A DNA stretch of 63,830 nt, counting the filler. It is 7 parts of 7 records of this genome, joined end to end, with 100 filler letters (N's around TTAATTAATTAA, not from the genome) between each part and the next. Parts side by side here need not be neighbours in the genome. Positions count along the whole stretch, not along the records: positions 22,080 to 41,628 come from SRR31147125_11614; 6 more parts are not named here. One strand, written 5' to 3'. Under the pieces are notes generated by a model. It was not told the origin of the DNA and did not search any database. It was given only the letters and a program-made list of their open reading frames with translations. A program made the translations under genes and the position numbers. Positions 16,257 to 48,920 of this stretch are shown here, piece by piece (position 1 is the first letter of the stretch; the number at the start of each line of letters is the position of its first letter).

Positions 16257-16356
16257 NNNNNNNNNNNNNNNNNNNNNNNNNNNNNNNNNNNNNNNNNNNN
16301 TTAATTAATTAANNNNNNNNNNNNNNNNNNNNNNNNNNNNNNNNNNNNNNNNNNNN
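16257..16356. other. Artificial contig linker
   Basis: N-run + TTAATTAATTAA + N-run. Confidence 0.99.
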
Positions 16357-21979: not shown

Positions 21980-22079
21980 NNNNNNNNNNNNNNNNNNNNN
22001 NNNNNNNNNNNNNNNNNNNNNNNTTAATTAATTAANNNNNNNNNNNNNNNNNNNNNNNNNNNNNNNNNNNNNNNNNNNN
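21980..22079. other. Artificial contig linker
   Basis: N-run + TTAATTAATTAA + N-run. Confidence 0.99.
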
Positions 22080-23290: not shown

Positions 23291-23413
23291 GGCAACTGGT
23301 TCCTTATTAATATCGTCAGCTTTATGGTATCAATAAATATTGATCGGCACAATTAAATCAATAACATCTCTTCAGATTTTTCGGCTGTTAATCGGCATTT
23401 GCTGAGCAGCGTC

Positions 23414-23977
23414 TTATTCAACCGGTTTCATTTCCGCAATATACGGCAATGTACGATACTGTTCCGAATAATCGAGACCGTACCCCACTACCCACACATC
23501 TGGAATGGAAAAGCCCACATAATCGAGTCCTACATCCACGACCCTTCGATCCGGTTTGTCCAGCAGGGCTGCAGTTTTCAAAGAGGTCGGTTTTCGTGCT
23601 TCAAAATTGCGTTTCAGGTAGTCCAGGGTATAACCGCTGTCCAGGATATCTTCCACGATCAGCACATGCTTATCGGCAAGATTCTCACGAACATCCATGA
23701 TCATACGCACATTTCCCGACACACTGCCCGATTTCCCATAGCTGGAAAGGGCAATGAAATCAATAGAGTGCGGTATGGTCAATTTTCTGGAAAGATCGCT
23801 GAGAAAGATGAAAGATCCTTTCAGTACACCGACCAGAACAAGTTCCGTGGCTTTGGCGGCTGCATATTCTTCGTTAATGGTCCGGGCCAGTTCGTTGACG
23901 CGCCGCTCTATAGTGTCGGCATCAATCAGGACTCTGACCAAGTCGGAGGAGAGAGGAGGAATTGTGAATGATGACAT
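23414..23977 (-). CDS. hpt: Hypoxanthine phosphoribosyltransferase
   Basis: VLKGS, VLIVEDILDSGYTL and VVGYGLDY; likely ATG 23977. Confidence 0.95.
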   Translation of the reverse strand: MSSFTIPPLSSDLVRVLIDADTIERRVNELARTINEEYAAAKATELVLVGVLKGSFIFLSDLSRKLTIPHSIDFIALSSYGKSGSVSGNVRMIMDVRENLADKHVLIVEDILDSGYTLDYLKRNFEARKPTSLKTAALLDKPDRRVVDVGLDYVGFSIPDVWVVGYGLDYSEQYRTLPYIAEMKPVE

Positions 23978-24306
23978 CAAATCGTCCTTTTGCGTGTTTT
24001 TTACATTCAAATGCTTTCATTTAAATGCCCGGGCTATTGTGTTCAAGAATGGTGTGCCGGACAGCTGATCGCTACGCTGCAAAGAAATGTTTGCTGCCGA
24101 TAAACGGCGTTAGCCATTTCCTATTACTTCATAGCGGGAAAATGGATGAGAGTCAAGATGCGGAGGAGGGTTGACGGCCTGAAACGTGATTCTGGCTGCC
24201 GGGGGCTTCTTTCGGACAACAAACCGATTATTTACAAATTATGTAACGATGTCAATATTGACAAATTTATAAATATTGTAAATTATAAACATGACAGGAG
24301 AGATAT

Positions 24307-25338
24307 ATGGACAAAGAATATCCAGTATATATACGTGCATTCGGATCGGCTGTGCCGGAACGAGTGGTTACGAACGACGATCTTACCAAAAAGGTAGATA
24401 CTACCGATGAATGGATTCGATCCCATACAGGTATCGGATCAAGACATCTGGCTGAAGAGAGTCAGGCTACTTCTGATTTGGCTGTGCAGGCTGCCAAAGA
24501 TGCTCTTCAGAATGCCGGGATGGCAGCTGATCAGCTGGACTGTATAGTTGTTGCCACGGCGACACCGGATTATGTTGGATTTCCCTCAACAGCATGTGTT
24601 GTACAGCACAAGCTTGGACTTTCAAAAATTCCGGCATTTGATGTCACCGCAGGCTGTACGGGCTTCATCTATGCGCTTGAAATTGCCATGGCATTCATGA
24701 AGGACAGTCATATGAAGAATATCCTGGTGATCGGGGCCGAAAAACTGTCCAGCATCATCAACTGGGATGACCGCAACACATGCGTGCTGTTCGGTGATGG
24801 AGCGGGCTGTGCGATTCTTTCCACTGAGGATTCACCACGTCTTGCTGAAGACCGTTCCAGCTGCAAGTTTACCGAACCCGGGATAATCGATTCAGTGTTG
24901 TATGCCGAAGGATACGGATACGAATATCTCAAGGTGCCGGCCGGCGGATCACATTCACCCATACGGGATGGCGAGGTGGCTATTGAGGATGTATCACTGC
25001 ATATGGACGGCCGTCAGGTATACAAGTTCGCCGTTAAAGCCGTAAGTGACATTATTGTTGAACTGGCTGAACGAAACGGGCTTACACTGGACGATTACGA
25101 CTGGATCGTTCCGCATCAGGCAAATATGCGCATTATCCAGGCAGCGGCGAGAAGGCTGAAAATTCCCATGGATAAGTTCTACCTGAATATTGAAACATTC
25201 GCCAATACTTCAGCAGCTTCCATTCCATTGGCAGCGACTGAGATGCAGGGTAAAGGCATAATTAAACCGGGAGATGTGGTGCTTACCGTCGGTTTCGGTG
25301 CCGGGCTTACCTACGGCGGCAATTTATTTGTCTGGTAG
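24307..25338 (+). CDS. fabH: Beta-ketoacyl-ACP synthase III
   Basis: AGCTGF, FGDGAG, PHQAN, NTSAAS and GFGAG. Confidence 0.96.
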   Translation: MDKEYPVYIRAFGSAVPERVVTNDDLTKKVDTTDEWIRSHTGIGSRHLAEESQATSDLAVQAAKDALQNAGMAADQLDCIVVATATPDYVGFPSTACVVQHKLGLSKIPAFDVTAGCTGFIYALEIAMAFMKDSHMKNILVIGAEKLSSIINWDDRNTCVLFGDGAGCAILSTEDSPRLAEDRSSCKFTEPGIIDSVLYAEGYGYEYLKVPAGGSHSPIRDGEVAIEDVSLHMDGRQVYKFAVKAVSDIIVELAERNGLTLDDYDWIVPHQANMRIIQAAARRLKIPMDKFYLNIETFANTSAASIPLAATEMQGKGIIKPGDVVLTVGFGAGLTYGGNLFVW

Positions 25339-25470
25339 AGCAATAATACTCAAGTCTATTCTGTGTTCCATGATATATTACGGCAGGAAACGGAACGGTA
25401 AATATTGAAGGATTTTTCCAATACGGATATAGTTTATCCGAGGATACCATACAAAACCAAAGGGGTTTAT

Positions 25471-26418
25471 ATGAAAAAGAGTGTCTGTTTTTTTCCTGGC
25501 CAGGGCGCGCAGTATGCCGGCATGGGACAGGATCTTTATAACGAATCAGCAGCAGTGCGTGATGTATTCAGCACGGCTTCAGACGCCACCGGGCGCGATC
25601 TGAAAGAGCTGATTTTTACCGGTACAGAAGAGGATTTGAAGAACACTTCCAATACACAGGTCGCCATTACCCTGGTCAGCATCGCTTCCTACACCATTCT
25701 GAAAGAACGCGGTCTGTTGAACGGTTCAGATAGTAAACCGATCTTTGCCGGATTCAGCCTTGGTGAACTTTCCGCTTACTACGCGGCTGGAATCTATGAT
25801 CTTGACACCTTATTCAAGATTGCCAATATGCGGGGCAACCTAATGGCTAAAGCCGCGGCCGAAGCTGTGGAAACATATGGAACACTCGGCATGGCTGCCG
25901 TAATCGGGAAGGGATTCGATGAAGTGCAGGCTGTTATCAAGGAGACAGGACTGCAGCATATATATCCATCCAACGACAATGGCCCGAAACAGGTGGTGGT
26001 AGCCGGTGTTCAGGAAAATATCGGTAAACTTACGGAAGCGCTGAAAGCAGCCGGAACCAGAAGAGTAATTCCCCTGAAAGTCGGTGCCCCCTTCCATACT
26101 CCGTTCCTTGAACCGGCAGCTGAAGAGTTCAAAGGATTTGTCAGTGATTTTTCTTTCAATGATCCAGTAGAGACGGTATATACAAATGTTAACGGCGGTG
26201 TGGTAGTTTCCGGTGAGGATGCCAGAATGAACCTGAGTCGTCAGCAGATTTCCCCGGTACGCTGGACCGGAATCATACTTTCCATAGCGGAAGATGATGA
26301 TATTGCGGCTTGCTATGAAGCAGGTCCCGGCAAGGTGCTTTCAGGATTGTGGAGAAACAGCGGAAGCTCAATCTCCTGCAGTATGGCGGGAACCATGGAG
26401 CAGATAAACGCGCTGTAA
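25471..26418 (+). CDS. fabD: Malonyl-CoA:ACP transacylase
   Basis: FPGQGAQ, GFSLGE and APFHT; likely ATG 25471. Confidence 0.94.
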   Translation: MKKSVCFFPGQGAQYAGMGQDLYNESAAVRDVFSTASDATGRDLKELIFTGTEEDLKNTSNTQVAITLVSIASYTILKERGLLNGSDSKPIFAGFSLGELSAYYAAGIYDLDTLFKIANMRGNLMAKAAAEAVETYGTLGMAAVIGKGFDEVQAVIKETGLQHIYPSNDNGPKQVVVAGVQENIGKLTEALKAAGTRRVIPLKVGAPFHTPFLEPAAEEFKGFVSDFSFNDPVETVYTNVNGGVVVSGEDARMNLSRQQISPVRWTGIILSIAEDDDIAACYEAGPGKVLSGLWRNSGSSISCSMAGTMEQINAL

Positions 26419-26455
26419 CATACAGCGTTATGTTATACATGTGAAGGAGTAGGAT

Positions 26456-27208
26456 GTGAACGGCAGTGATTGGAACGGAAAACATGTGGTCGTAACAGGC
26501 GGTTCAAAAGGTATCGGTCTGGCAATCGTGGAGGCCTATATTCGGGAAGGTGCCGATGTGTGGTATCTCAGCAGATCTCAGGCTGAAACGCATGCTGATC
26601 TGGCTGCGACTGCCGGAGAAAACGGCTGTTCGCTGGAGTGGATACAGACCGATATGGCCGATGAGGCATCGATTGAGGGAGCGCTTAAGAGTGTTCTTGC
26701 TGCCGCCGGTTCGGTAGATGTTCTGGTAAACAACGCCGGTATTACCCGGGACGGCTTAATCATGCGCATGAAGTCGGAAGCATGGGATGAAGTTCTGAAT
26801 GTAAACCTGAAAGGGGTATTTATCGCATGTCGTACACTGGCTCGACCGATGGCTAAATCACGCGGCGGATCGATTATCAATATTTCGTCGGTAGTTGGAA
26901 TAATCGGTAACGGAGGTCAGACAAATTACTCGGCTTCAAAAGCGGGTATGATCGGGTTTTCGAAAAGCCTGGCGCGGGAACTTGCATCCAGAGATGTACG
27001 GGTGAATGTGATTGCTCCCGGATTTGTGGAGACACAGATGACTGCCGTCTTGAAGGATGAGCAGAAGGAAGCACTTGCAAAGCAGATTCCGCTGGGACGC
27101 ATGGGACAGCCGGCAGATATAGCTGAATCGGTGCTGTTTCTTTCATCTGGTAAAGCGGGATATATAACCGGTCAGGTGCTTGCCGTAGACGGCGGTATGG
27201 TAATGTAA
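26456..27208 (+). CDS. fabG: 3-oxoacyl-ACP reductase
   Basis: TGGSKGIG, NNAGITRD and YSASK; fab context. Confidence 0.95.
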   Translation: MNGSDWNGKHVVVTGGSKGIGLAIVEAYIREGADVWYLSRSQAETHADLAATAGENGCSLEWIQTDMADEASIEGALKSVLAAAGSVDVLVNNAGITRDGLIMRMKSEAWDEVLNVNLKGVFIACRTLARPMAKSRGGSIINISSVVGIIGNGGQTNYSASKAGMIGFSKSLARELASRDVRVNVIAPGFVETQMTAVLKDEQKEALAKQIPLGRMGQPADIAESVLFLSSGKAGYITGQVLAVDGGMVM

Positions 27209-27337
27209 TACAGTGCTCGAGACTTAGCATTAAGTCAGGCAGATAGCATTAAAAGAACAAATATAGAGAAAAGATGTATACATCTTTGGTATACAGAATG
27301 TGATCAGGATACAATGAGGAAAGGAGATATAACCGTT

Positions 27338-28599
27338 ATGGGTGAAAAAGAGAGAAGAGTTGTAATAACCGGTATGGGAGCTATTACTCCTTTGGGACAC
27401 ACTGTCAAAGAACTCTGGGACGGAATAAAAGCCGGAAAGTCAGGAATTACCAACACTACACTTGTGGATGTCAGTGATCTGCCGTCACAGGTTGCCGGTG
27501 AAGTGAAGAATTTCAAGGCATCGGACTTCATGGATAAAAAAGAGGCCCGCAACATGGCACGCTTTACCCAATTTGCGGTTACCGGAACGATAGAAGCTAT
27601 GCAGGATGCCGGATTTGGTCCAAATGGTGAAGGCGGTTATGATCCTGAGCGTTTCGGAGTGTATCTTGGTAATGGGATCGGCGGTTTTGAGATTGCCGAG
27701 GACGGCGTCAGTAAGCTGAATGCACGTGGTCCGCGCGGAATTCCCCAATGACCATTCCTAAAATGATCACGAATGAAGCCGGTGGAAACATCGCTATTAA
27801 ATTCGGACTGCTTGGTCCCTGTAACACCATTGCAACAGCTTGTGCGTCAGCCACCGATGCAATCGGTCTTGGATATATGGCAGTGAAGCACGGCACGTTG
27901 GATGCTATCGTGACCGGCGGTACTGAAGCGGCTATTACACGCCTTGGCATCGGCGGTTTCTGTCGAATTCAGGCCCTGTCTACCGAATACAACGATCGAC
28001 CGGAAGAGGCTTGCCGACCTTTTGATAAAGATCGTGACGGATTTGTTCTCGGCGAAGGTGCCGGAATCCTGATTCTAGAGGAACTTGAGCATGCAAAAGC
28101 CAGAGGGGCCGAAATCTATGCCGAACTTGTCGGTTATGGTCAGACCTGTGACGCGTTTCACCTTACAGCGCCGAATCCGGAGGGGCAGGGTGCAGCCAGA
28201 GCGATGAAAGCGGCTCTGAGAGATGCCGGCATGCAGCCTGAGGATATCGATTATATCAATGCGCATGGTACCTCCACTCCGGTAAATGATCCCATGGAAA
28301 CCAATGCTATCAAGCTTGCTTTTGGTGAGCATGCCTATAAATTGAAAGTATCTTCCACGAAGTCGATGACGGCCCATATAGTCGGTGGTGCAGGCGGCGT
28401 GGAATTGATCATTTCCATAATGGCGCTTAAGGAACAGTTTTTCCCGTGTACTCTTAATATGAATGAAGCCGATCCTGCTTGTGATCTGGATTACGTTCCT
28501 AACAAGGGTTATCATGGCAGAATCAGAGCCGCGCTCTCCGAATCCCTCGGTTTCGGCGGACATAACGGAGCTCTGATTGTTAAGGAGTATAAGGAATAA
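27338..28599 (+). CDS. fabF: Beta-ketoacyl-ACP synthase II, 1-nt frameshift in a C-run near 27745
   Basis: RRVVITGMG in the first frame; TACASA, NAHGTST and GFGGHN in the second. One added C restores ...GIPPMTIPK. Confidence 0.93.
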
Positions 28600-28604
28600 T
28601 TTCA

Positions 28605-29041
28605 ATGGCTGAGATCTATAGAACTATTAATGAACTGCTTCCGCATCGTGACCCGTTTGTCTTTGTGGACAGGCTGACCTATTCCACAAAGGATGAAGTG
28701 CATGGTGAGTACACCTTTACCGGTGATGAAGTCTTTTTCCAGGGCATTTCCCCGGGCATCCGATTGTTCCCGGGGTTCTGCTGGTGGAGATGATGGCTCA
28801 GTGCGGCGGTGCCGGCATGAAACAGGCTGGTGTCATTCCAGAGCACGGGCTCTTTTTTCTGGCCACGATTGACAAAACCAAGTTCAGGAAAGAGGTGAAG
28901 CCGGGCGACACCTGCACGATTGAGGTGAAGAATCTGCGGGCCAGCAAGTCCATGCTGAAACAGACCGGTATAATCAAGGTAAATGGTGAAGTCTATACTG
29001 AAGCTACCTGGATGTGCATAGTCGGGATGGTTGAAGAATAG
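28605..29041 (+). CDS. fabZ: 3-hydroxyacyl-ACP dehydratase, 1-nt frameshift in a G-run near 28743
   Basis: LLPHRDPF; one added G restores [22 protein letters not shown]. Confidence 0.92.
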
Positions 29042-29062
29042 GCTCAAACTCCATATATTTCA

Positions 29063-29589
29063 TTATCTTATAAGATATTCCAAATGAATATCTTCCGGTT
29101 CCAGCCTAAATAATTCAGGCTCTATATGCTTTGTTACTGTACACCCCATATGCATATAGAAATCGACGGTATTTTTATTCTCATTGGATGAAATATATAC
29201 TTTTGCCGCGCCCTTTTGCCGGGCGGTTTCCACCGCTTTCATAAACAGTACTTTCCCTATTCCCTGCTTTCGGAAATATCGATCTATATGCAGGAATTTC
29301 AATTGCAGGGTATCCTTGCACGGGCCGATCCATAGTGTATCAAGAACGATTACAGCTTTCAGAATATCATCTTTAAAAGCACCCCAAAAGAATCCGCCGC
29401 GGGCGTAACACTCTTTTAACTGAGATCCGTACAGTTCAATTGTATGAGAGGGCCAGCCTGTGCAGAAAAATCAAACTGCTCTTCAAACAGCCTGCCATTA
29501 CGGTAGCGATATAATGAGGTAAATTGTTCACTTCTGTCGATACTCCAGATCTGGGCAAGATCCTCTTTGCGCAATTGTCTGTAATTCAT
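29063..29589 (-). CDS. GNAT-family acetyltransferase, 1-nt frameshift near 29457
   Basis: ATG 29589 gives MNYRQLRKEDLAQIWSIDRSE; second frame has FRKQGIGK and FYMHMG. Start overlaps the lipoprotein stop. Confidence 0.82.
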
Positions 29590-30869
29590 TAATTCAGGTA
29601 ATAGATATTCACACCACCGATACCGCTGGCCACGAAGATGTGATTTGCCTTGAAATCTATATGGTTTGCCGAATAAGGTGTTCCTCCCTCGTTCAAACCC
29701 TCATAAGAGATATATCCGACTACTTCGGCAAAAGTCGCATTTTTTCCCGATAAATTCAATAATCGCAGCAGCCTGAAGCCATACTCTCCGTTGGCTGAGA
29801 ATATATAACTCCCATCCGTTGAGACGCTGTTCGTGTTGGTTTTGTCCGTGAAATCAGCAGTCGGGTTGTCCAGCTCAAAGACAAATTCGGAATCCTCTTC
29901 ATTAGCTTTAATATCGAGAACTTTCATGCCTGCTTCTGACAATCCAAGAAACGCGTACTTTGAATTATGTGTTTCGATTGTAGATTTATGGTAGGGAGAA
30001 TCAAAATCTGGCAAAGAAAAGACAACAGGATTTTCCAGATCATTAGCGGGGTAGATAAGAACTCTCCCGTTCTCCTGATCATTGTCGGTCGTTCCTGCCA
30101 CGGTAATAAATCCATTCTGGTAATTCCAGACATCACGTACGTCCGGCAGGTCAATAAATCCGGTGATGCTCAGGGAGCTGTTCAGAATTTGGACACCGCC
30201 ATCCAGCGCGCCAACCCCGACATAAAAGGTGTTGCCATGGTTTGTTATTGCCGTTGTCGCATAACTCTGCAGCCCTACCAGAGAGTTTATAATGGCTTCG
30301 ATATCGACATTCGGGAGACTGCTTAACTCAATTTTACCGATAAAACTTCTAAAACCGAATTGGGTTGCATCTGTCTGGCCGCCGAAATAGAGATCCCCGC
30401 CCGATATTTCTATGGTATTTATATCCATGTTGGAAAATGTAATTTCCGTCAGAATTTCCGGCTCGCCCGGGCTGGAAATATCGACAATCTGGATTGCACC
30501 CTTGAATAGACTACCAGCGTAATTATAGGCGATGTAGGCAGTATTACCATTGATAACTACATCGTTGGCGTGTACCGACACACCATCGACTTCTACCGGC
30601 AGGATGCGTGCTTTATAGGTGATAGTTTTTTCAAAATCTTCAACCTTGGTCTTTGGAGCCCGTGCCCCGGAAGTCTGGATCCCGGCAGTCAGAGAACGAC
30701 TTATTCCTCCATCTGCCTCCTCGTATATATCAACTTCACTATCATGCTGCTCCATAGCCTTGTCATCCGACATACTAATAATTATTTCCGGATTGGGAAG
30801 AAAACAGGCCGCGGTCGATACAATCAGAAGGCCGATTACTGCTATTGTTATAAAACGCTTTGTTTTCAT
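29589..30869 (-). CDS. Lipoprotein with LVIVD-like beta-propeller repeats
   Basis: Signal MKTKRFITIAVIGLLIVSTAAC; blade-like segments GAIQIVDIS, AGMKVLDI and FVASGIGGVNIY. Confidence 0.75.
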   Translation of the reverse strand: MKTKRFITIAVIGLLIVSTAACFLPNPEIIISMSDDKAMEQHDSEVDIYEEADGGISRSLTAGIQTSGARAPKTKVEDFEKTITYKARILPVEVDGVSVHANDVVINGNTAYIAYNYAGSLFKGAIQIVDISSPGEPEILTEITFSNMDINTIEISGGDLYFGGQTDATQFGFRSFIGKIELSSLPNVDIEAIINSLVGLQSYATTAITNHGNTFYVGVGALDGGVQILNSSLSITGFIDLPDVRDVWNYQNGFITVAGTTDNDQENGRVLIYPANDLENPVVFSLPDFDSPYHKSTIETHNSKYAFLGLSEAGMKVLDIKANEEDSEFVFELDNPTADFTDKTNTNSVSTDGSYIFSANGEYGFRLLRLLNLSGKNATFAEVVGYISYEGLNEGGTPYSANHIDFKANHIFVASGIGGVNIYYLN

Positions 30870-31035
30870 ACAATTCATCCTTATACGGGTGGTCAATTTC
30901 ACACTGGTGAAACTATTACCATATAACTCAACTATAGCACTCATTCAGGATTATTTCAAAATGCAGCAATGTGATATATAATGAAAAAGTTCTTATTACT
31001 TGCCAATATCGAATACCCCCGATAAAACGGAGTAG

Positions 31036-31797
31036 ATGATGAAAAAAATATTCATTCTTGGCGCGGTACTGCTGCTTGCTTTCCAGAGCATTGCAGGAGG
31101 TGATTTCCGCAATATTACCACCGTAGAGGTGGATACCGATACGTATGGAGCGCTTGGTTTGGCGGTAGAGGATGCCTTCATAGCCCGTGTCTCCAAGGAT
31201 GTTTCACTGATAATAAAAGGGTATCATACCCAGGGGTACAATATGCTTATACCCAGTTCGGATCCGACGCTTACCTTTAGCGAAACTGTGGGGGCAGTAG
31301 TCAATTTCGGGCCGTTCTACTCTGAAATTTCATACACACTTTCACAGTATCCGGAGAGTGTAACTACTCATACCATCTATATGGACGGCACGAAAGAAGG
31401 ACCCGAATTTTTAATTACTCCAGCCCTGAAAGCTGTTTTTGCCGCCGATAGTACGGTTTTAATGCCCAGTTTTTCCTATTTCAACTATGCCGATCCCGAA
31501 ATCCGTTATCGGGGAAAAGTTTTCGGTAGCTGGGATATCGGGGCAAGTGTGAACGGAGCCCTTTGGCTGGAAGGAATATATATCCCTGGCGGTGATTTTA
31601 CCTATCGCCTTGGATCAGCACTTGGCACCCTCTACACAGCAAGTGATACTGATCTGAGATTGGAATTCTCTCTTCTGCCGGGGGTGGACTGGAAGGTCTC
31701 TGATTCAGTTGTTTTAAAATACAATTTCAGCTGGATAGTTGAGCAGAATGCTGCTCAGACGCTGGGACACAGTATTGTGTGTGATGTGCGATTCTAG
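31036..31797 (+). CDS. Putative outer-membrane beta-barrel (YaiO-like)
   Basis: Signal peptide, alternating amphipathic strands and C-terminal ...CDVRF. Confidence 0.65.
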   Translation: MMKKIFILGAVLLLAFQSIAGGDFRNITTVEVDTDTYGALGLAVEDAFIARVSKDVSLIIKGYHTQGYNMLIPSSDPTLTFSETVGAVVNFGPFYSEISYTLSQYPESVTTHTIYMDGTKEGPEFLITPALKAVFAADSTVLMPSFSYFNYADPEIRYRGKVFGSWDIGASVNGALWLEGIYIPGGDFTYRLGSALGTLYTASDTDLRLEFSLLPGVDWKVSDSVVLKYNFSWIVEQNAAQTLGHSIVCDVRF

Positions 31798-31822
31798 CCA
31801 AGCAGAAGATACCGGACAGGGA

Positions 31823-34650
31823 TTACTTTTTTCCGGCAAACCCTTTTCGTACCATCTTCCCCCAGCCTTTCGGCTTCTTTAAGGAGTTAATGTAGCCGGT
31901 TACTCTGATAAAACTCATCACCTGTCTGAATCCGAAGTTTTCAATAAGACTGAAAAACAGCAGCACGAAGAAATCCCGCCTGTTGAAATAGTGCACCTCT
32001 TTTTCTGCAATCAGCAGCGAGCAGAGTGAGACAAAAATTCCCATAAGGACGGTGGCAGCGAACAGCAGCAGTGCCAGGGTCGAGTTGATCAACCCCAGGA
32101 TTATCGCAAGTATTACCATCACATATCCCATGATTTCAAACAGCGGACCGATCATCTCAAAAATGAAAAAGTAGGGAAGGGCCACCAGGCCGGTCGTGCG
32201 GTAACTTGGGTTGAACAGTATTTTTCGATGGAATGTAAGAATATCTATCAACCCTCTGTGCCATCTGTCTCGCTGCTTGTAGAGAATGTTGAAACTCTCC
32301 GGTACCTCGGTCCAGCAGTTGGCATTGAAAGAGTATTGAATCTTGGCCGGTATCTTCTTCTCCCGCATATGACGGGCCAGCCGCACGACTAGTTCCATAT
32401 CCTCACCCACGGTATCCTTACCGAATTTACCGCTGGATGTAAGGTACCCACCGATTTCTATGATGCGTTTTTTACTGAACAGCCCAAAGGCTCCTGAAAT
32501 TATCAGTAAGCAGTTGATAAAAGCCCAACCAACCCGGCCTGCCATAAAAGCCCTGATGTACTCCATCGTCTGAAAGCGGGCAATAATATTTTTCGGAACC
32601 CTGATGTCGGAAATGTGACCTTTATCGACCGAACAGCCGTTAATGGGAAAGATATTTCCTCCTACGGCAACAGTCTCAGCTTCGGAGTTCAAAGACATCG
32701 AGGCAACCTTGAGCAGGGCATCCGGTTCCAGCAGGGAATCAGCATCGATTCCGCAGAAGAACTCTTTCTGGGAGATATTAATACCGGCATTCAGGGAGTC
32801 GGCTTTACCGCCGTTGGCTTTATCTACCACAACCAGTTTCGGGTAAGCTTTATTGGCATATATTCCCCGTACAGGCTTTGTGGCAATATTCTGGCTGATG
32901 TGCATATCGATCTTTTCCAGCTTATAGTACTCAATCAAGGTGTTGAGGGTAGCATCTCCCGATCCATCATTTATCACGATAATTTCATAATCGGGATAAT
33001 TGAGATTAAGTAGGGAATTGGTACTTTCAATTATGGTAGCTTCTTCACAGTAGGCCGGCGCAAGGATCGATACCGATGGAAGGATGTTTTTCCTGAACAG
33101 GAAGGTTGGCTTTTTCAAACTCCAGAGACGGGACTGCCAGTCCATTCCTTTAATGGAAAAAAGCAGGATGGTTATGTTCACCGCATTGATGGCTACAAAG
33201 TAAAAAACAAGATAGTAGTTGAAGTCGACCACAAACCGCTTTATATGTTCCATAAGTGTCCATTCGGTCAGCACCTCAGCTCTTCTGATAAGATAAATCG
33301 CCGGCAGGACAGCAAGTGAAAGAGCAAGCAGGATGGAAAGTATGATAATCTTGGATTTCTCTTTCTCACTACCATGCCGCTTTCTTTCAATTATCAGCAC
33401 CTCAAGCTTCAGCTTTTTCAGGATACGCTCGTTCAGATATATGCGCAGCTCTTTTTCAATATCCTTGTTGGTTTCAGTTACCTTCTTCAATATCCCGACA
33501 ATCTCATTCTCAATTTCACGATTGTTGTTCTTATTGAGGAAGCCGATGACATCACTGACTTTCCCGATGCTGATAATCTCATGTAGAATGGCCCGTGTCT
33601 GCTCCTTTTCCCGGGCAAGCAGTCTCATGAAGAGCACTTCAATTCTACTGGAGAGAATCTGGGCATATACTCTCTTTTTCTTCTTCTCTTCTTCATCATG
33701 GAAAATATGAATCAGCTGCTGCAGTACTTTCGGCTTATTGCGGGCAATGGTTGATAAACCAATAATAGCCTCTTCTTGTGTTTCGGCTTTAAAAAGGTAG
33801 GGGATAATCTGCTTCCAGCAATCTCCGGAACAGGTTTTTGTAATGCTTCTAATAAAGAATTGATTCACTAGAATATCTTCGGACAGACGGAACCGGTCAT
33901 TGCGCAGTTCTCCAGGGTAAAGTGTCAGTATACTTTTAAAGGCCTGCTGTCTTATATCCTCATCTTGCGAGGCTGTCCGTTCCAGAATATACTGCTTCAT
34001 CTCCTCTGCAATAAACTTCCCCCCGAAATCGCAGAAAAGCAGCTGAATTTCACACTCTTGTCTGGTAAGGAAATCTGAAGCTGTTGCCAGAATGTCTTTC
34101 CCGAAATCGATCAGAACAGAATGCATTTTATGCTGATACCAGATTGGTGCATCTATAAGCGATTCTATAAGGTCGGGAATAGCGGCCGTATGTCTGAGGT
34201 TGGCAATAGCATCGGCAATAATCAGTTTGACGTGATATTTACTTTCACGAATAAAGGATTCCTGCAGGAATCTACGGGACAACGGGGTATCAATATATCC
34301 CAAACGAGCTGCGGCCTCCATTCTGTTCAGTGCTGTGGTCGATACGATTTTTTCTGTATATATCTGATCAAGGCGTTTGTCTTCCGCCCATTTTTGCAAA
34401 GCAGCCCTTTTATCCCTGCTTATGTCGCTGTTTTGCATCACATCTATTGCGCAGTCGAACAATCGTAGTTTCCGGAGCCTGCTTTTGTTTCTCCAGGATT
34501 ATTATGCAGAATGAAGTCGTACAGTTCCTGTTTTTTCTTCAGTTTACGGGTAACATCGACCTTTCTCAACCAGACGATCAGGATAAGCAGGATGTCTGCG
34601 ATAATAAATCCAAAACAGATCCAGTATGCTGCCGCATGTGATATCAGCAT
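31823..34650 (-). CDS. HEAT-repeat / processive GT2 polysaccharide synthase fusion, 1-nt frameshift near 34465
   Basis: N-terminal TM in ORF 34444-34650, then HEAT-like helices. GT2 motifs DGSGD, GGKADSLN, DAD, GEDMEL and QRDRW; C-terminal TMs. Confidence 0.9.
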
Positions 34651-34654
34651 TGCA

Positions 34655-36653
34655 TCAATCCTTTATTTCGGTCAGCGTTTTAATGATTCCCAGTAGTTCG
34701 GAGGGCAGATATGGTTTCTGCAAATAGCTGTTTACCGAGATTCCGTAAGCTCTATCTACCGAGGAATCCGACTTATTATAACCCATGAGTATGAATGGTA
34801 TCTGTTTCACCATAGAGCTCATCAGCATTTTCTCGCGGATTTTAAAACCATCCAACTTGGGAAGAACTTCTTCAGATATGACCAGTTTGGGATTGGTCTT
34901 ATAGATCTCTTTGAGAGCAGTTTCTCCATCAAGGCAGGTTACGGTATCGAATCCCATTTGTGTTACCAGCGTTTGAATGATATCAGTATTCAGCGGGTCC
35001 GGATCTGCGATCAGGATAGTTCCCAAAGTCTTTCTGTTCAGGTCGAACAACTCAGATTCACTGCAGACTATGTTCATCCCCTGCTTTTTTGCTATTTTCA
35101 GCCTGATTCGTGCCAGATCACAAAGGTTGTCGAATAGTTCTATCGGGGATTCGTACAATTCAGAAACCTCACTGAAATCGGTAATACCGATAGAGGCAGT
35201 AATGGGAGTGACAAAATAGTCGGAAGATTCAATCTCGCTTCTGATCTCATCGGCTACAGCGATTCCCGCTTTCTTGTCGAGTGACGGCAGGTAGTAGACG
35301 AATGTTGGACCAGCCAATTTGAATACCAGATGGGTATCCTGTTTCAAAGAATTAAACAGATAGGTACAGTTCCTGAGAATTTCATCACCCGAATTATCTC
35401 CGGAGGCCATGCTTTTCTGACCGAATTCATCAATCTCCAGAAAGAAAACCGAAAAATTCTCCTCTTTCTCAATATAGTGTTCAATCTCACCTGCCATATA
35501 ATTTTTGAAGAAAAACCCATTATAGAGTTTTGTCACAGGGCAGGTAATCAGGCTTTCCTTGGTTGACTGAAGGTTTGTTTCAAGGCGGGCATTCATCTCT
35601 GTCAGTGCTTTTACTTCGTTTGACATCTCTTCTACTCTCTTTTCATAACTGTAAAGTGTAGATTTATAGATTGACGGCAGCTCGATGTCATATTCACTGC
35701 AGATCCTCTGAACAAGTACTTCGGTAATATTCAGCCAGGACTGTCCCTTCTTCGAATAGATATGCTCGAAAATCTGGTCCCAGAGATCTTCCCCGGTACA
35801 GCTAAAATCTATGATTTGCTGTGATTCTCCATCGAGTACGATGTCGGTATCGGTAAATACTTCAAGTACTTCTCCACAGCTGAAGGTGGCGCAGTAGCGT
35901 TTCAGAATCTGGTTACAAAGTCCGTGGTATCCGCCGGCTTTAAAGAGCTCTTTCTTAATTGGATTGAAAGCTGCCGCATTCCAGGTCGTGCAGCGCCATA
36001 ATATGTTCGGTAACATTTTCACGAATTACCGAACCATGCTGGGGGGCGATTAAATTGATATCCATTGCCAGCAGCAGTTTCATGATCGGTTTCAGGATAT
36101 CGTTGCCGGGCATATAGTGTTCATGGAATGTTTTCATGGACTCTATATAGGTAGCATCGGCAAACAGCTGCCAGTTGGTGGAAAAAGAACCGAACAGGTC
36201 CCCGGAAAAGAGTACTTTATATAATGGATCATAAGCTACTATTGTTCCGGGAAAATGGAGGTAGGGAGTATGAATAAACTCGATTTTACGACCTGATTTT
36301 AGTTTCAGGAGGTAACTATTTTCATCTACAAGGTAGTATGGTGATGTAATCCCATAGTAGTTTACGATAACGGATGTTCGCCAGTGCAGGGCAATCTTTC
36401 CCTTAAATCCTGCTTTTTCTAATAAGGGGACAGAGGCACACAGATCGGGATCCTGGTGGCTGAGCACTATATAGGTGAGATCCTCAACCGGGAGATGCTT
36501 TTCAAGGTTTGCCAGCACCTGCTCGAAATCCAGCGGGGAACCGGGATCGAAGAGAATCGTTTCGTCACCGTCACTGAGAAGGTACGGATTGCACTGCAGA
36601 GATGAATTTTCCTGTTCATGACCAAGCCAGTAAATCGTTTCCGATATTTTCAT
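34655..36653 (-). CDS. ODP-like di-iron MBL-fold sensor fused to degenerate GGDEF and pseudo-receiver domains, apparent frameshift near 35965
   Basis: SHQDPD, LHFPG, FSGDLFG and APQHG; then CPVTKLYN...FKLAGPTF; REC domain with LVISE at the acceptor site. Confidence 0.82.
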
Positions 36654-36867
36654 TACAACACCATGAATGTTAATTGTTTCTCTATCGTACTTTATTTGTT
36701 GGAAGTTTTTGTAATACCTTTATCGTTTATCATACCCTCATGAACCCGTATTGACAATACTTATAACTTTTCATGCAAATCAACATCTTTGTGAAAGGTT
36801 TCACTTTTGATGAAGGAATAATGCGAAATGGTTCATTTAACAGTTTAAATCATGTATAGTTTTCACT

Positions 36868-37071
36868 ATGAAATTAAACGATATGAATGTAAGTGAAAAA
36901 GAGCTGTACTGTCCCCATTGCGGGAATATTGTCAAATGGCCCTTCTGCTGCGGCCAGGATATGGAGCTGGATGAAGGCGCGCGAATGTTTTTCTGTGAGA
37001 TTTGCGGCAAAGAGAAAGCTCATCCCAAATGCTGCGGGGAGTATATGCAGATAAGGAGACGGGAAGTATGA
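36868..37071 (+). CDS. Small protein with two CxxC-x8-CCG-xx-M desulforedoxin-like metal sites
   Basis: CPHCGNIVKWPFCCGQDM and CEICGKEKAHPKCCGEYM; ATGA overlap with the SDR gene. Confidence 0.8.
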   Translation: MKLNDMNVSEKELYCPHCGNIVKWPFCCGQDMELDEGARMFFCEICGKEKAHPKCCGEYMQIRRREV

Positions 37072-37880
37072 ATGATGGAATAAACTCATTACCCGAGATG
37101 CTCTCTTTTACGGGTAAAACAGTCATGGTCACTGGCGGCTGTCAGAACTTTGGCCTGGAAATTGCCACCGGTTTTGCCGAGCTGCAGGCTTCGGTTATTG
37201 TGACTTCACGCAGCAGAGAAAAAGCTGAGCATGCTGCCCGGGAACTGGCAGAGCGATTTGGAGTTCGGACTTTAGGACTAGCTCTCGATATCACCGATGA
37301 ACAGGCTGTTACAGATGCCTTTGATGCGGTAATGCAGGAATTCGGTTCTCTAGATGCCTTGGTGAACAACGCGGGAGGGCACTCTCCGCTGGCTACGGGG
37401 AAGCTGGATACCGAACCGCTTGAGGCTTGGAACGTATTCATCAATATCAATATGACGGGAACATTCCTGATGACGAGAGAATACGCAAGACGTATGATGC
37501 CGAAGAAAACGGGATGCATCGTGAATATCGCCTCAATCGCGGGAATTGTGGGGCGTGATCGTCGTGTTTATCCCGAAAATATGAAACCCCAGCCGGTCCA
37601 ATATGCGGCAGCAAAAGCTGGAATGATAGGATTTACCTACGATTCAGCAGCCTATCTTGCCGATTACGGCATCAGAGTGAATGCCATTTCCCCGGGTGGA
37701 TTTGAGCGCGGGCAGCCGGAAAAATTTATCGAGGGGTATTCTGATCGTGCCATGCTGAAACGGATGGGACGTGATGGCTATGACCTGAAAGGGGCTGTTA
37801 CATTCCTGGCATCGGAAGCCGCTGCCTATATCACTGGACACAATCTGGTGGTGGATGGCGGTTTTACCGTTTTCAAATAG
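37068..37880 (+). CDS. Short-chain dehydrogenase/reductase
   Basis: TGGCQNFG, VNNAG, YAAAK and NAISPGG; likely ATG 37068. Confidence 0.92.
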   Translation: MNDGINSLPEMLSFTGKTVMVTGGCQNFGLEIATGFAELQASVIVTSRSREKAEHAARELAERFGVRTLGLALDITDEQAVTDAFDAVMQEFGSLDALVNNAGGHSPLATGKLDTEPLEAWNVFININMTGTFLMTREYARRMMPKKTGCIVNIASIAGIVGRDRRVYPENMKPQPVQYAAAKAGMIGFTYDSAAYLADYGIRVNAISPGGFERGQPEKFIEGYSDRAMLKRMGRDGYDLKGAVTFLASEAAAYITGHNLVVDGGFTVFK

Positions 37881-37908
37881 AGTTGTATGAGTTTTCAGGA
37901 GTTGAAAT

Positions 37909-38862
37909 ATGAAAGTACTGGTTATCGGCTGCGGCTCTATCGGTCTGCGTCATCTGGCAAATTTATCCTTGAACAATACGTTGGAATTAGCTGGGTTGGA
38001 TCTGAATCCGGGAGCCGAAAAAGAGGTTTGTAGCATAAGTTCGAATATTCTGTTTTTCAGCACATTTGATTCCGCGGCTGGATGGGAACCCGAACTGGTA
38101 GTAGTAGCTACACCCAATCACCTTCATAAAGAAAATTGCCTGTGGGCTTTTGATCTTGGAGCCCACGTGCTGTGTGAGAAACCGTTGGCCACATCCGTAT
38201 CTGAAGGGCTTGAGATAGTGGAAGCTGCCGAAACATCCAACCTGAAACTGGGTGTCGGATTTACCGAGCGGTTTCGTGAAGCTGTAACCTATATTATCAA
38301 TACTGCAAATTCCGGAAAATTGGGAAAACTGATCGGCGGACGAGCCATGGTGGGGACCTATAATACCATGCTCTGTGCCAAAGACCCGAAGCACAGAGGA
38401 GAAACTTTTGGTTCTATCGTACTCGATTACGTACATGAACTCGATATCCTGGCAGCCGTTTTTGGTTCAATGAAGAGTGTCGCTGCCAAGTGTAACTCAC
38501 TTGCGGAGAAGGAACGCGGTGCAAACCCTTCACTGGCAGCCGCCCTTGCTGAGTATGAGCATGGAGAGATAGTCTCCATCCACTTTGACTATGTGCAGCA
38601 TCCCCAGCGGCGCTGCCTGGAAATTTATGGCGATCACGGAACCCTGGAATATGATTTTCAGACGGACATGCTTAAAGTGTACGACTGTGATAAGCAGGGA
38701 TATGAAGTGCTGACATTCAGCAATGTTCGCAACGAACAGTTCGTGCGGGAACACAACGATATGCTGCATGCGATTGCTTCCGGTTGTGAACCGCGGGTTA
38801 CCGGCAGGGAAGGACTGCGGTCTCTGGAAGTGTCGGAGATGATTCTTAAACAGCTAAGGTAG
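37909..38862 (+). CDS. Gfo/Idh/MocA-family oxidoreductase
   Basis: IGCGSIG, ATPNHLH, CEKP and DYVHELD. Confidence 0.92.
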   Translation: MKVLVIGCGSIGLRHLANLSLNNTLELAGLDLNPGAEKEVCSISSNILFFSTFDSAAGWEPELVVVATPNHLHKENCLWAFDLGAHVLCEKPLATSVSEGLEIVEAAETSNLKLGVGFTERFREAVTYIINTANSGKLGKLIGGRAMVGTYNTMLCAKDPKHRGETFGSIVLDYVHELDILAAVFGSMKSVAAKCNSLAEKERGANPSLAAALAEYEHGEIVSIHFDYVQHPQRRCLEIYGDHGTLEYDFQTDMLKVYDCDKQGYEVLTFSNVRNEQFVREHNDMLHAIASGCEPRVTGREGLRSLEVSEMILKQLR

Positions 38863-39019
38863 GGTTCACAACTTATTAGGGATATATGCTGGTATTTGAT
38901 CCTGTCAATGTTCCACTACTAGAAATAGACAAAATGTTCTACTTAAAAACAGAATTCTCCAACTACAAAATATTAGTACTCGTTTTACAATTTATAAAAA
39001 TGATAACGGGGGGCTTGGC

Positions 39020-40132
39020 ATGGAAAAAATTCTGAATGTAGATTATTTTGATCTGGTTTATTCACAAAACAGTTTATTTGGGGAATCAGAGATAGAAAAA
39101 TTGATGCAAAACGCAAAAGAAAGTGGTTTTACAACAGTTCTTTGGCGGTTGTCGGTATGTGGGGTTGCAGCTTATTGGACTGATAAAAGAAAACAATTTC
39201 CCGGGCATCATTTAGCAATTCCAAGATCATATAATATGGTAAGAATTCTTAAAATGTTTGACCCGCTTGAAGTAGCCTGCAGGTTGGCAAAAAAATATGG
39301 ATTGAAAATTTTTGCTTGGATTACGGTTATGGATGAAGACTACAATGCCGGAATGATAAGCGATTTTGTAGAAAAAAATCCACAATTTACATTAGTTTCA
39401 AAAGACCAGAGAAGGCACTTACTAGGCGCTCTCTGCTATTGGTATGATGAAGTTCAGGAATACGCACTAGAACAGGTTGTAGATGTTTCTTCCCGGTACA
39501 ATATTGATGGAATCTATCTCTGTACCCGCTCTCATGCTTACTTTGCGAATTCCAGTAGGGATTTAGATGATTTTGGGTATAATGAACCAGTGGTTAGTGA
39601 GTATCGTAAAAGATATAATACTGATCCGTTAACGGAATCTTTTGATAAAAAACTTTTCTATGATTTGCAAGGTGAAGGAATAACACGTTTTTTTACTAAA
39701 GCTTCTGCTGTTGTGAGAAAACGGAATCAAAAGCTTTGGATTGGAATTCATAGTGATGGTTATAGTCTTATGAATATTTCCCCCATGGCACATATGAAAA
39801 TGGATTGGGAAAAATGGACTCAGGATAGTATTGTCGATGCTTTAGTAATTGCTGCCGGGGAAGCTATTCTTGATAAACATGATATATGGTTTAAAGAACA
39901 ATTTTCAAAATATAATCATATAAAAGAAAGAGAATGTAAATTACTCTTATGGTATCGACTATGGGATTGGCGAAATGAACATCCCTATTTACCAGCTCCA
40001 GTAGAAACGAAGAATCCTGAACTTATGTATCAAGTCGCAGCACAGTATGCTGACATGTTTGATGGGTATGCATTTCATGAGGCATTAAATATTAACTATT
40101 ATGATCTCTGGCAGCTTTTTTCTCGTATTTAG
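39020..40132 (+). CDS. GHL10/DUF187-like glycoside hydrolase-like protein
   Basis: GFTTVLWR, FDPLE...KYGLKIFAW and RYNIDGIYL; next to sugar ABC permeases. Confidence 0.7.
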   Translation: MEKILNVDYFDLVYSQNSLFGESEIEKLMQNAKESGFTTVLWRLSVCGVAAYWTDKRKQFPGHHLAIPRSYNMVRILKMFDPLEVACRLAKKYGLKIFAWITVMDEDYNAGMISDFVEKNPQFTLVSKDQRRHLLGALCYWYDEVQEYALEQVVDVSSRYNIDGIYLCTRSHAYFANSSRDLDDFGYNEPVVSEYRKRYNTDPLTESFDKKLFYDLQGEGITRFFTKASAVVRKRNQKLWIGIHSDGYSLMNISPMAHMKMDWEKWTQDSIVDALVIAAGEAILDKHDIWFKEQFSKYNHIKERECKLLLWYRLWDWRNEHPYLPAPVETKNPELMYQVAAQYADMFDGYAFHEALNINYYDLWQLFSRI

Positions 40133-40233
40133 TCGAAATAAAAGTTTAAAGCACATGAAAATGGACAGAATTCTACACCTAATAGTCAAAATAGTTGGTT
40201 TTGTGGAGTATAAGAAGGGCATATCATAATAAT

Positions 40234-41130
40234 ATGAAAAAATCTTCAGCGAAAAGAAAAGAGGCATTTGCTGGTTATATGTTTATCCTCCCCAACTTAC
40301 TGGGTTTTGCTACGTTTATTTTATTTGGTGTGGTTTTTTCATTGGTTATGAGTTTTACCGATTGGAATTTGTTGAAAGATTTTTCAGATATGAAATTTAT
40401 AGGGTTTCAAAACTATCTTGATCTTCCGAAAGATGACTGGTTTATTGATTCTTTGCTAAACAATTTATGGTTTTTATTAATCATTCCCCTCCAAATCTTT
40501 TTTGCAATGATAACGGCTAGCATTCTTAATGGTCGCATTATTGGCAGGAAACCTTTGAGAGCCATGTTTTATCTTCCTTATGTTACATCCCTTGTGGCTA
40601 TTTCAGTTGTTTGGATGACATTGTTTAACCCGCGATTTGGACCTATTAATAATTTCTTAAAAAGTCTTGGAGTCATAAATCCCCCCAAATGGCTGGCTTC
40701 TGTAACTTGGTCTAAGCCTGCAATTGGTATAATTATGATTTGGCAGCAGCTAGGTTATCATGCACTGCTCTATCTTTCAGCACTGCAGAATATTCCAGGA
40801 ACCTTGTATGAAGCCGCTGAAGTAGATGGTGCTTCAGCGCTGCAGAAATTTTTTAGAATAACATTGCCACTCTTATCATCAACAACGTTTCTCATCACTG
40901 TCATTGCAGTTATAGCCAGTTTCCAATCCTGGTCAATGATACAAATCCTTACACAGGGCGGGCCAGGTACTTCGACTCACATTCTTGGTTATTATGTCTA
41001 CAATGTTGCTTTTAAGTTTTACAGGATGGGGTATGCATCGGCAATTTCATGGATTCTTTTTCTTATCATATTTTTAATAACCCTGATTCAATGGAGGGGT
41101 CAAAAAAAGTGGGTTAACTATCTGGTTTGA
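40234..41130 (+). CDS. Carbohydrate ABC transporter permease
   Basis: EAA loop LYEAAEVDGAS and FIGFQNY; likely ATG 40234. Confidence 0.94.
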   Translation: MKKSSAKRKEAFAGYMFILPNLLGFATFILFGVVFSLVMSFTDWNLLKDFSDMKFIGFQNYLDLPKDDWFIDSLLNNLWFLLIIPLQIFFAMITASILNGRIIGRKPLRAMFYLPYVTSLVAISVVWMTLFNPRFGPINNFLKSLGVINPPKWLASVTWSKPAIGIIMIWQQLGYHALLYLSALQNIPGTLYEAAEVDGASALQKFFRITLPLLSSTTFLITVIAVIASFQSWSMIQILTQGGPGTSTHILGYYVYNVAFKFYRMGYASAISWILFLIIFLITLIQWRGQKKWVNYLV

Positions 41131-41156
41131 GTTATTACAAAAGGAAGCATGTATAA

Positions 41157-41628
41157 ATGAATAATATACAGAAGACTATCAATACAAAAAAGAAATTGAA
41201 ATTATCTCAAGTAATCCTCAGCTTGCTTATGTGGCTGTTTGGTGTGCTTATGATAATTCCTTTTCTATGGATGATTTCGTCTTCTTTTAAAGATAATGTT
41301 GATATGTTTCGTTATCCTATTCAATGGATACCAAAAAATCCTTCATTTATGAGTTATCGGGATGTATGGGCTTCGGATGTACCTTTTTTACAATTTTATT
41401 TTAATTCAATAAAAGTAGTTATTATGGCTGTTATTGGTACATTTTTCACTTGCTCAATGGCCGGTTTTGCATATGCAAAACTCAAATTCCCAGGAAGAGA
41501 CAAACTGTTTTTGCTGAAAATTGCAGCTGCGATGATCCCTTTTCAAGTTTTAATGCTGCCGACATTTATGATTTATCGCTGGTTGGGACTTATTGACAGA
41601 CAAGCTGCTCTCTGGCTGCAGACTTTTT
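41157..41628 (+). CDS. Carbohydrate ABC transporter permease 2, 3'-truncated
   Basis: PFLWMISSSFK and AGFAYAKLKFPGR. Confidence 0.9.
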
Positions 41629-41728
41629 NNNNNNNNNNNNNNNNNNNNNNNNNNNNNNNNNNNNNNNNNNNNTTAATTAATTAANNNNNNNNNNNNNNNN
41701 NNNNNNNNNNNNNNNNNNNNNNNNNNNN
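41629..41728. other. Artificial contig linker
   Basis: N-run + TTAATTAATTAA + N-run. Confidence 0.99.
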
Positions 41729-48820: not shown

Positions 48821-48920
48821 NNNNNNNNNNNNNNNNNNNNNNNNNNNNNNNNNNNNNNNNNNNNTTAATTAATTAANNNNNNNNNNNNNNNNNNNNNNNN
48901 NNNNNNNNNNNNNNNNNNNN
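48821..48920. other. Artificial contig linker
   Basis: N-run + TTAATTAATTAA + N-run. Confidence 0.99.

Follow-up and report, generated by a model that had tools for sequence, protein, structure and literature searches.

A di-iron ODP domain fused to degenerate GGDEF and receiver domains is encoded next to a HEAT-repeat glycosyltransferase and may act as its O2/Fe(II)-responsive regulatory subunit

We analysed a stretch of DNA of 63,830 nucleotides (nt; hereafter the window), which consists of seven contigs joined end to end, and in which the contig at positions 22080-41628 carries two adjacent genes on the minus strand. Gene 1 would encode a cytoplasmic sensor-adaptor, made up of a di-iron ODP domain, a helical linker domain, a signalling helix, a degenerate GGDEF domain and a pseudo-receiver (a degenerate REC domain). 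Gene 2 would encode a membrane polysaccharide synthase, made up of a transmembrane (TM) helix, a cytoplasmic arm of HEAT repeats and a processive core of glycosyltransferase family 2 (GT2). An earlier note, prepared by reading the letters alone, had proposed this order of domains for the sensor from the motifs HQDPD, HFPG, SGDLFG, APQHG, AGPTF and LVISE and from a coiled-coil-like helix, and Pfam searches, alignment to PleD and structure models located each of them on the minus strand where the note had put it.

The N-terminal part of the sensor (35955-36653, minus strand; an open reading frame (ORF) of 232 amino acids (aa)) is an ODP-type di-iron domain of the metallo-beta-lactamase (MBL) fold. 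It was matched by Pfam PF19583 over the full profile (positions 1-194 of 194; E = 2.3e-61; score 207.5 bits, gathering cut-off 27.2), it carries the ODP motifs HQDPD (36444-36458), HFPG (36246-36257), SGDLFG (36189-36206) and APQHG (36033-36047), all on the minus strand, and its ORF terminates at a conserved LECG, the same end as that of solved ODPs. The best PDB matches of the window domain were the ODPs 6qrq_B (E = 3.2e-30) and 6qnm_A (E = 1.4e-22), with flavodiiron proteins (FDPs) at 1.6e-11 or weaker. The same order was obtained with a profile of the family (ODPs at E = 2e-47 and 3e-40, FDPs at 3e-22) and with Foldseek, for which we used the model of P0001, a homologue 70% identical to the window sensor: ODPs took ranks 1-8 (6qwo, 6qrq and 6r9n with TM-scores of about 0.8 and a root-mean-square deviation of 2.0 Å), and FDPs came lower, at about 1e-14. 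By sequence and by fold the MBL domain groups with the sensor ODPs and not with the FDPs, and the note's assumption that it is not of the FprA type is thereby borne out.

Residue conservation was read from 96 aligned full-length members of the family (39 proteins and 57 locus translations; locus L068 was excluded for an internal stop codon), in which H66, D68, D70, H133, D152, H177 and H206, the candidate di-iron ligands, are present in 96/96. In alignments the residues of the metal-site motifs (H-x-D-x-D, H, D, H, H) are the same as those in solved ODPs, and we take them to be the probable metal ligands. A site of this composition could bind iron and form an O2 adduct. With a mean pairwise identity of 0.60, the ODP domain is also the most conserved of the parts compared (0.34-0.36 for the linker, helix and degenerate GGDEF parts).

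The ODP domain is followed by a family-specific helical linker domain of about 112 aa (35630-35965, minus strand), for which an AlphaFold model was computed with a predicted local distance difference test score (pLDDT) of 92.1 and a predicted template modelling score (pTM) of 0.83, and which the model depicts as a bundle of helices plus a small hairpin. Foldseek returned 0 PDB matches for this fold at E ≤ 1e-3, and the top Z of 5.3 in the wide VIA comparison (bromodomain and pyrin-type helical bundles) is at the noise level for helical models. An exhaustive phmmer search of 1.84 billion representatives with the linker domain gave 101 matches at E ≤ 1e-3, most of which were proteins of 650-700 aa that place the domain near residues 235-350 and have the same architecture as the window sensor; the others were shorter proteins or fragments, together with one chance-level match in a protein of 2708 aa. 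A signalling, coiled-coil-like helix then leads into the GGDEF fold (approximate limits 35540-35629, minus strand). In the full-length model of P0001 (pLDDT 89.5, pTM 0.54) this helix spans residues 328-370, about 43 residues, after the linker domain and directly before the GGDEF fold, and Foldseek matched the helix-GGDEF region to the coiled-coil-GGDEF structures 6ttr and 3i5c. As modelled, the linker-helix-GGDEF arrangement has the usual geometry of cyclases controlled by a signalling helix.

The degenerate GGDEF domain lies at 35072-35539 (minus strand; Pfam PF00990, E = 2.6e-14, residues 162-317 of a 455-aa ORF), and its fold is indicated by the P0001 model and by Foldseek matches to DgcB, WspR and SiaD. 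The sequence AGPTF (35300-35314) aligns with the GGEEF of PleD, and QDTH (35330-35341) aligns with the RxxD inhibitory site (I-site) of PleD, which lies five residues before the signature. Across the family the GG[DE]EF signature was found in 0/96 members and the RxxD I-site likewise in 0/96; the signature has lost its two acidic residues, and the base-recognising Asn position is not conserved. To judge from these residues, the domain should be unable to make cyclic di-GMP (c-di-GMP) and should lack the inhibitory-site pocket for it. The pseudo-receiver follows at 34682-35017 (minus strand; Pfam PF00072, E = 3.6e-13, residues 336-447 of the 455-aa ORF), where residue alignment places the Glu of LVISE (34871-34885) at the position of the phospho-acceptor Asp53 of PleD, so that the window receiver is predicted not to be phosphorylated on Asp. 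The acceptor position is Glu in 90 of the 96 members, Asp in four, Gly in one and Ala in one, and the receiver switch residues are mostly kept (Lys 95/96, Ser 92/96, Tyr or Phe 94/96). The loss of the cyclase motifs and of the acceptor Asp, which the note had read from the window copy, is thus a property of the family. Among solved structures, PleD-type regulators are closest in sequence to the GGDEF and REC parts (E = 1e-16 with the window sequence, 2e-39 with the family profile), but the window order is the reverse of that in PleD, with GGDEF before REC, and GGEEF, RxxD and acceptor Asp are all gone. The proteins of the sensor family carry the database names 'response regulator' or 'diguanylate cyclase'. 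A further match to the GGDEF-REC part, in G176, was set aside as an ordinary GGDEF-REC-HD-GYP protein and not a member of the family.

The synthase gene begins 4 nt after the sensor stop in the window. Three-frame translation and N-terminal alignment placed its true 5' end at the ATG at 34650, within a 68-aa ORF (34444-34650, minus strand) that encodes a TM helix and a basic stretch. The note had correctly set the start of the GT2 gene a few nucleotides past the sensor stop, but had missed that the GT2 gene itself contains a frame break. The cytoplasmic HEAT-repeat region comprises residues 1-365 of the following 879-aa ORF (33368-34462, minus strand); it was assigned by Pfam HEAT_2, at E = 9.1e-5 and below the cut-off in the window copy, and by an atlas lead of 0.89 to HEAT_2 clusters, and HEAT_2 was matched in 43/43 homologous N-termini scanned, in 40 of them above the cut-off. 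The membrane-embedded processive GT2 core with its flanking TM segments occupies 31823-33367 (minus strand; Pfam Glycos_transf_2, E = 9.3e-18, with Glyco_tranf_2_3 and Chitin_synth_2), and carries the core motifs DGS (32954-32968), DxD (32735-32752), GED (32393-32407) and QRDRW (32261-32275). The D, DxD, GED and QRxRW motifs are invariant among 60 aligned synthases, in which hydrophobic segments flank the core. Motifs of this series, D, DxD, (G/T)ED and Q(R/Q)xRW, together with flanking TM helices, define the processive membrane GT2 synthases. Full-length homologous synthases measure 944-1068 aa and have the N-terminal TM helix at their start. In seven loci, including that of Acetobacterium (L013:7308-8372), a gene for a glycoside hydrolase of family 16 (GH16) lies at most two genes upstream of the sensor; a beta-glucan-type product of the synthase is a possible reading of these genes.

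Linkage of sensor and synthase was assessed in a scan of one genome per species, in which at least 572 stretches encode sensor relatives and the best 80 loci were analysed. Among these best 80, a synthase homologue lies directly downstream of the sensor on the same strand in 71, and the other nine end no more than 382 nt past the sensor, so that adjacency holds in 71/71 informative loci. The synthase start lies between -30 and +40 nt from the sensor stop in 62/70 loci, and in 31 the two genes overlap by exactly 4 nt; the eight outliers mostly reflect the first-ATG rule or a local break that shifts the start. Sensor and synthase are likely to be translationally coupled. A metagenome scan found 15 loci, of which 10 were examined; the cassette was present in 10/10, seven of them ordinary fused forms. 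The linkage to a GT2 gene that the note had seen once is accordingly conserved. The two genes also co-occur: among 200 genomes of the class Clostridia that were scored, 17 have a close homologue of the synthase, four of the HEAT-fused kind and 13 core-only (about 478 aa), and a full-length sensor is found in exactly the four genomes with a HEAT-fused synthase, always adjacent to it, and in none of the other 196. Sensor tree and synthase tree have a common deep split and a similar clade make-up. By record title the carriers belong to Bacillota, Spirochaetota, Fibrobacterota, Chloroflexota (Anaerolineae) and Margulisiibacteriota, with one Patescibacteria record, for the most part lineages known as anaerobes. 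The window sensor groups with four metagenome proteins (support 100), among sequences of Spirochaetota, Fibrobacterota and Margulisiibacteriota.

Directly 3' of the synthase, 35 of the 71 loci have a third gene of about 1040 aa that has no Pfam match (for example L070:15486-18851). Its presence or absence separates two subfamilies, and the window belongs to the two-gene subfamily. Further along the window contig, 29589-30944 (minus strand) encodes a protein of 451 aa that has no significant Pfam match, a weak LVIVD repeat and an atlas score of 0.97 to LVIVD-like hypothetical clusters. In the Fibrobacterota loci L011 and L046 a homologue of this protein is encoded on the strand of the synthase, two genes 3' of it, and in L002 one is encoded downstream on the opposite strand; the gene may be an accessory gene of the subfamily to which the window belongs. 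In Clostridium grantii DSM 8605 (L014; G003 C54:152073 and 157105) two HEAT-GT2 genes are separated by 5 kb, with a 680-aa ORF in the interval; the whole cassette has probably been duplicated in tandem there.

Reduced forms of the sensor indicate which of its parts are constant. Three metagenome loci (L092:5455-6414, L095:5956-6921 and L096:1329-2291) encode proteins of 319-321 aa that consist of the GGDEF and REC parts only, with neither ODP nor linker. These minimal proteins have the degenerate signature and the Glu acceptor, and their stop codon overlaps the start of a HEAT-GT2 of 957-959 aa. Another five representatives, of 425-458 aa, lack the ODP and keep the linker domain, with a Met start just before it. 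Because minimal and ODP-less forms exist, we regard the degenerate GGDEF and pseudo-receiver pair as the constant partner of the synthase, and ODP and linker as an added input module. A HEAT-less arrangement was found in L082:862-6618 (G034), where a synthase core of 466 aa has a separate HEAT_2 protein of 355 aa just upstream, preceded in turn by proteins of 374 and 716 aa without a known family. This operon looks like a split synthase with a different upstream partner; the 716-aa and 374-aa proteins were rejected as relatives of the sensor (hhalign probability < 1%).

Both genes are interrupted in the window. The sensor gene is split into two minus-strand ORFs in different frames, 35955-36653 (232 aa) and 34655-36022 (455 aa), which overlap by 68 nt and, as the note had supposed, rejoin through a single frameshift. 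Three-frame translation and alignment to 13 single-polypeptide homologues placed the break at 35954-35975 (minus strand). The frames part directly after the Phe codon at 35967-35969, frame 1 reading ...LECGSF and frame 2 NPIKKEL..., and the single-polypeptide homologues read LECGxFLxPIKK through the junction; the window copy is either two bases short or one base too long here. In a collection of 5.8 billion proteins, the 45 best relatives all have ODP, GGDEF and REC, and 44 of them are single proteins of 665-691 aa, as the note had anticipated of the homologues, the remaining one being a 495-aa fragment. The top match is 70% identical to the window sensor, and the four closest relatives (61-70% identity) are all single proteins of 665-672 aa. 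Because 44/45 best relatives are single proteins, we take the sensor frame break to be a lesion, and programmed frameshifting at the junction was ruled out, since the homologues encode one frame. The synthase gene is broken in the same way near 34444-34500, between the 68-aa ORF (34444-34650) and the 879-aa ORF (31823-34462). On the same contig a gene for a FabF-like beta-ketoacyl-ACP synthase (27314-28599, plus strand) is split into ORFs of 145 and 283 aa by a break at 27748-27751, and on a neighbouring contig the aldehyde:ferredoxin oxidoreductase gene (12339-14262, minus strand) changes frame twice within its first ~100 codons (13975-14262, then 13964-14143, then 12339-14045). Within about 26 kb the window thus has five frame breaks, including one in a core gene of fatty-acid synthesis.

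Because the synthase, FabF and aldehyde oxidoreductase genes are also broken and the depth of the public run is low, the breaks are probably assembly errors. The single public run that contains the sensor stretch has a contig depth of 2.2-3.3 with 0.25 of the sampled words present, and its pieces cover 34704-34858, 35763-35913, 35998-36280 and 36356-36506, so that the sensor break (within the uncovered 35914-35997) and the synthase break both fall outside them. Apart from one break each, the sensor and synthase genes are clean, and they are 44-70% identical to intact homologues. We are rather confident that the frame breaks in the window are an artefact of assembly, and the split ORFs are not to be read as biology. 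The opposite view, that the breaks are real, either because the cassette is decaying to pseudogenes or because a free ODP and a separately translated linker-GGDEF-REC protein genuinely take the place of a fused sensor, has some points in its favour: the break is present in the assembly, its position coincides exactly with the ODP domain boundary, which is also the end of solved stand-alone ODPs, the second frame offers ATG and GTG codons upstream of the junction, and the ODP-less and GGDEF-REC-only forms described above exist. Set against the number of breaks in so short a stretch, the gap in the public run at the junction, the otherwise clean reading frames and the fused state of all four closest relatives, we consider it improbable. 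Another broken copy of the sensor gene, with an internal stop codon, occurs in a draft assembly, the Spirochaetales metagenome-assembled genome of L068 (8467-10464).

The family-wide loss of the cyclase motifs and of the acceptor Asp makes a contact-acting regulator of the adjacent synthase the best-supported reading of the sensor. In the mechanism that we propose, the degenerate GGDEF and pseudo-receiver pair would be permanently docked on the synthase as an accessory subunit, probably on the HEAT arm. Binding of O2, or loading or loss of Fe(II), at the di-iron site would change the conformation or the association of the ODP domain, as is reported for the chemotaxis ODPs, and this change would be relayed through the linker domain and the helix to the docked pair. 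Polymer synthesis would then be switched on or off, and anaerobes could adjust their exopolysaccharide to O2 or iron without c-di-GMP. That the sensor is an O2/Fe(II)-responsive regulatory subunit, presumed to control the synthase by contact and not through c-di-GMP, is a reading that we hold with moderate confidence. A more specific version is put forward tentatively: a fossil GGDEF-receiver pair would be an obligate subunit of the HEAT-armed synthase, most lineages would have recruited the ODP via the linker, and O2 or Fe(II) would gate the polymer directly and independently of c-di-GMP.

Several observations weigh against the contact reading. The best named NCBIfam model for the synthase, PgaC_IcaA (TIGR03937), scored 119.2 bits against an equivalog cut-off of 422.3. 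Since both genes are frame-broken in the window, this copy could be dead. In the four of 96 members with an acceptor Asp, phosphorylation is possible. A nucleotide ligand is possible as well, since 95/96 members keep the Asp that corresponds to PleD D327, and the Arg of the AExIR motif, the probable equivalent of PleD R390 by its position in the alignment, is nearly invariant (≥ 90%). Genes for GGDEF or EAL proteins lie at most four genes from the cassette in 21/71 loci, though this may reflect only their high base rate.

The last three of these points are also what favours the first rival explanation, in which the degenerate GGDEF domain, alone or with the pseudo-receiver, binds a nucleotide (c-di-GMP in a non-canonical way, or GTP at the remnant site) and the sensor is a receptor of the PelD or BcsE kind that also integrates the di-iron signal. 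Gly419 is likewise kept in 94/96 members, and PelD and BcsE are precedents, since both are degenerate GGDEF proteins, bind c-di-GMP and have synthase complexes as their targets (PMC8461298). Those two proteins, however, bind c-di-GMP through a conserved RxxD (PMC8461298), and this motif is the one missing from all members here, together with both signature acids and a conserved base-recognising Asn. Neither BcsE nor PelD appears among the best 60 of 359 PDB matches of the family profile, in which active cyclases do, and Pfam gave no match to PilZ or to another c-di-GMP-binding domain at E ≤ 0.1 in sensor or synthase. We therefore think nucleotide binding unlikely. The earlier note had offered protein contact or c-di-GMP binding as alternative outputs; contact fits the family best, and c-di-GMP is left without a canonical site.

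Hardly credible is a catalytic di-iron domain, acting as an O2- or NO-scavenging reductase or as a hydrolase, with the synthase linkage reflecting either protection from oxidative stress or some chemical step on the polymer. The FDPs do have this fold and these metal-site motifs, and they were matched in the sequence and Foldseek searches at the E-values given above, but the domain is nearer to the sensor ODPs, a signalling helix joins it to signalling folds, no flavodoxin (by Pfam), rubredoxin or other electron-entry domain follows it, the next domain being a helical bundle in the model, and the NCBIfam flavorubredoxin models reached 47-51 bits against cut-offs of 635-711.

The contact reading has parallels, and differences, in known systems. 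The ODPs of Treponema denticola (TDE2498) and Thermotoga maritima (6qnm, 6r9n, 6qrq, 6qwo) belong to PF19583 like the window domain and are its best match in sequence and fold. Muok et al. 2019 (PNAS) is said to have described a peroxo adduct and iron sensing for ODP. Known ODPs, however, are separate proteins with a length of about 250 aa, and they couple to a chemoreceptor without its own sensor domain and to CheA, whereas the window ODP is fused to a helical domain, a degenerate GGDEF and a pseudo-receiver and is found with a polysaccharide synthase. In T. denticola chemotaxis, ODP is an O2 sensor that acts through a partner receptor, signalling via a partner protein and not by catalysis (PMC7666581), and the same is proposed for the window sensor.

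A dead GGDEF domain as a cytoplasmic subunit of a synthase-dependent exopolysaccharide machine, as proposed here, is also found in PelD (Pseudomonas Pel) and in BcsE (cellulose of the E. coli type). A coiled coil is further predicted close to the GGDEF part of PelD (PMC8461298), as in the window sensor. The present family differs from both in the lost RxxD and in its di-iron sensor, its pseudo-receiver and its HEAT-fused GT2 partner, and in sequence it is nearer to the active cyclases PleD and WspR. On the side of the synthase, the PgaC/IcaA poly-beta-1,6-GlcNAc synthases have the D, DxD, GED and QRxRW motifs and the flanking TM helices in common with the window core. PgaC is controlled through a small partner protein (PMC8461298), and the window synthase is likewise paired; unlike PgaC, it has an extra N-terminal TM helix and a HEAT arm of about 365 aa, and its partner is a di-iron sensor, not PgaD with c-di-GMP. 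Finally, the hemerythrin-GGDEF protein Bhr-DGC of Vibrio cholerae places a non-haem di-iron O2/redox sensor before a GGDEF fold (PMC8846402), as in the window, but with a four-helix fold, an active cyclase and c-di-GMP as output, where the window sensor has the MBL fold, a dead cyclase and, presumably, output by contact.

The text of the 2022 census of c-di-GMP-linked sensor domains that was available lists hemerythrin as a di-iron O2 sensor of GGDEF proteins, and the words ODP, diiron and lactamase are absent from that text (PMC8846402). A full-text literature search, which did not extend to supplements, found no paper on an ODP-GGDEF-REC fusion or on its link to a synthase, and a search with the name variants of ODP and with PF19583 found no such fusion by title or abstract. 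Compared with the degenerate-GGDEF accessory regulators, what appears new from the sequences is the di-iron ODP input, the absence of a c-di-GMP site and the HEAT-armed synthase as partner.

The remaining observations concern the window itself. Its seven contigs are separated by spacers of the form N44-TTAATTAATTAA-N44, at 9860-9959, 16257-16356, 21980-22079, 41629-41728, 48821-48920 and 56675-56774. Gene content varies among the contigs, with genes for a TonB receptor, FecR and extracytoplasmic function (ECF) sigma factors set against genes of anaerobe fermentation, and the bin from which they come may be mixed. On the contig of the cassette, a Cys-rich ORF of 67 aa (36868-37071, plus strand) is divergent from the sensor and has a weak match to desulfoferrodoxin-N or a zinc ribbon (E = 2e-5); a homologue of it was found in 0/80 related loci. 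An Rfam scan of the contig returned neither a riboswitch nor another RNA family at E ≤ 1, and promoter and terminator scans gave no signal above the shuffled expectation.

Synthase-dependent exopolysaccharide systems (cellulose, poly-beta-1,6-GlcNAc (PNAG), Pel and alginate) are the textbook targets of c-di-GMP. The unit described here retains the shells of c-di-GMP and two-component domains, the chemistry of which appears to be gone, with a predicted O2/iron di-iron sensor in its stead. If the contact reading is true, it would provide a direct molecular link from O2 or iron to the matrix in anaerobes (acetogens, syntrophs, treponemes, relatives of Fibrobacter and Anaerolineae), it would be a second physiological output of ODP sensors beyond chemotaxis, and it would show clearly how dead enzyme and receiver domains can be given a new role as a structural adaptor. 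Among the cultured carriers are Acetobacterium malicum, Clostridium grantii and Flexilinea flocculi, and their existence makes the proposal testable.

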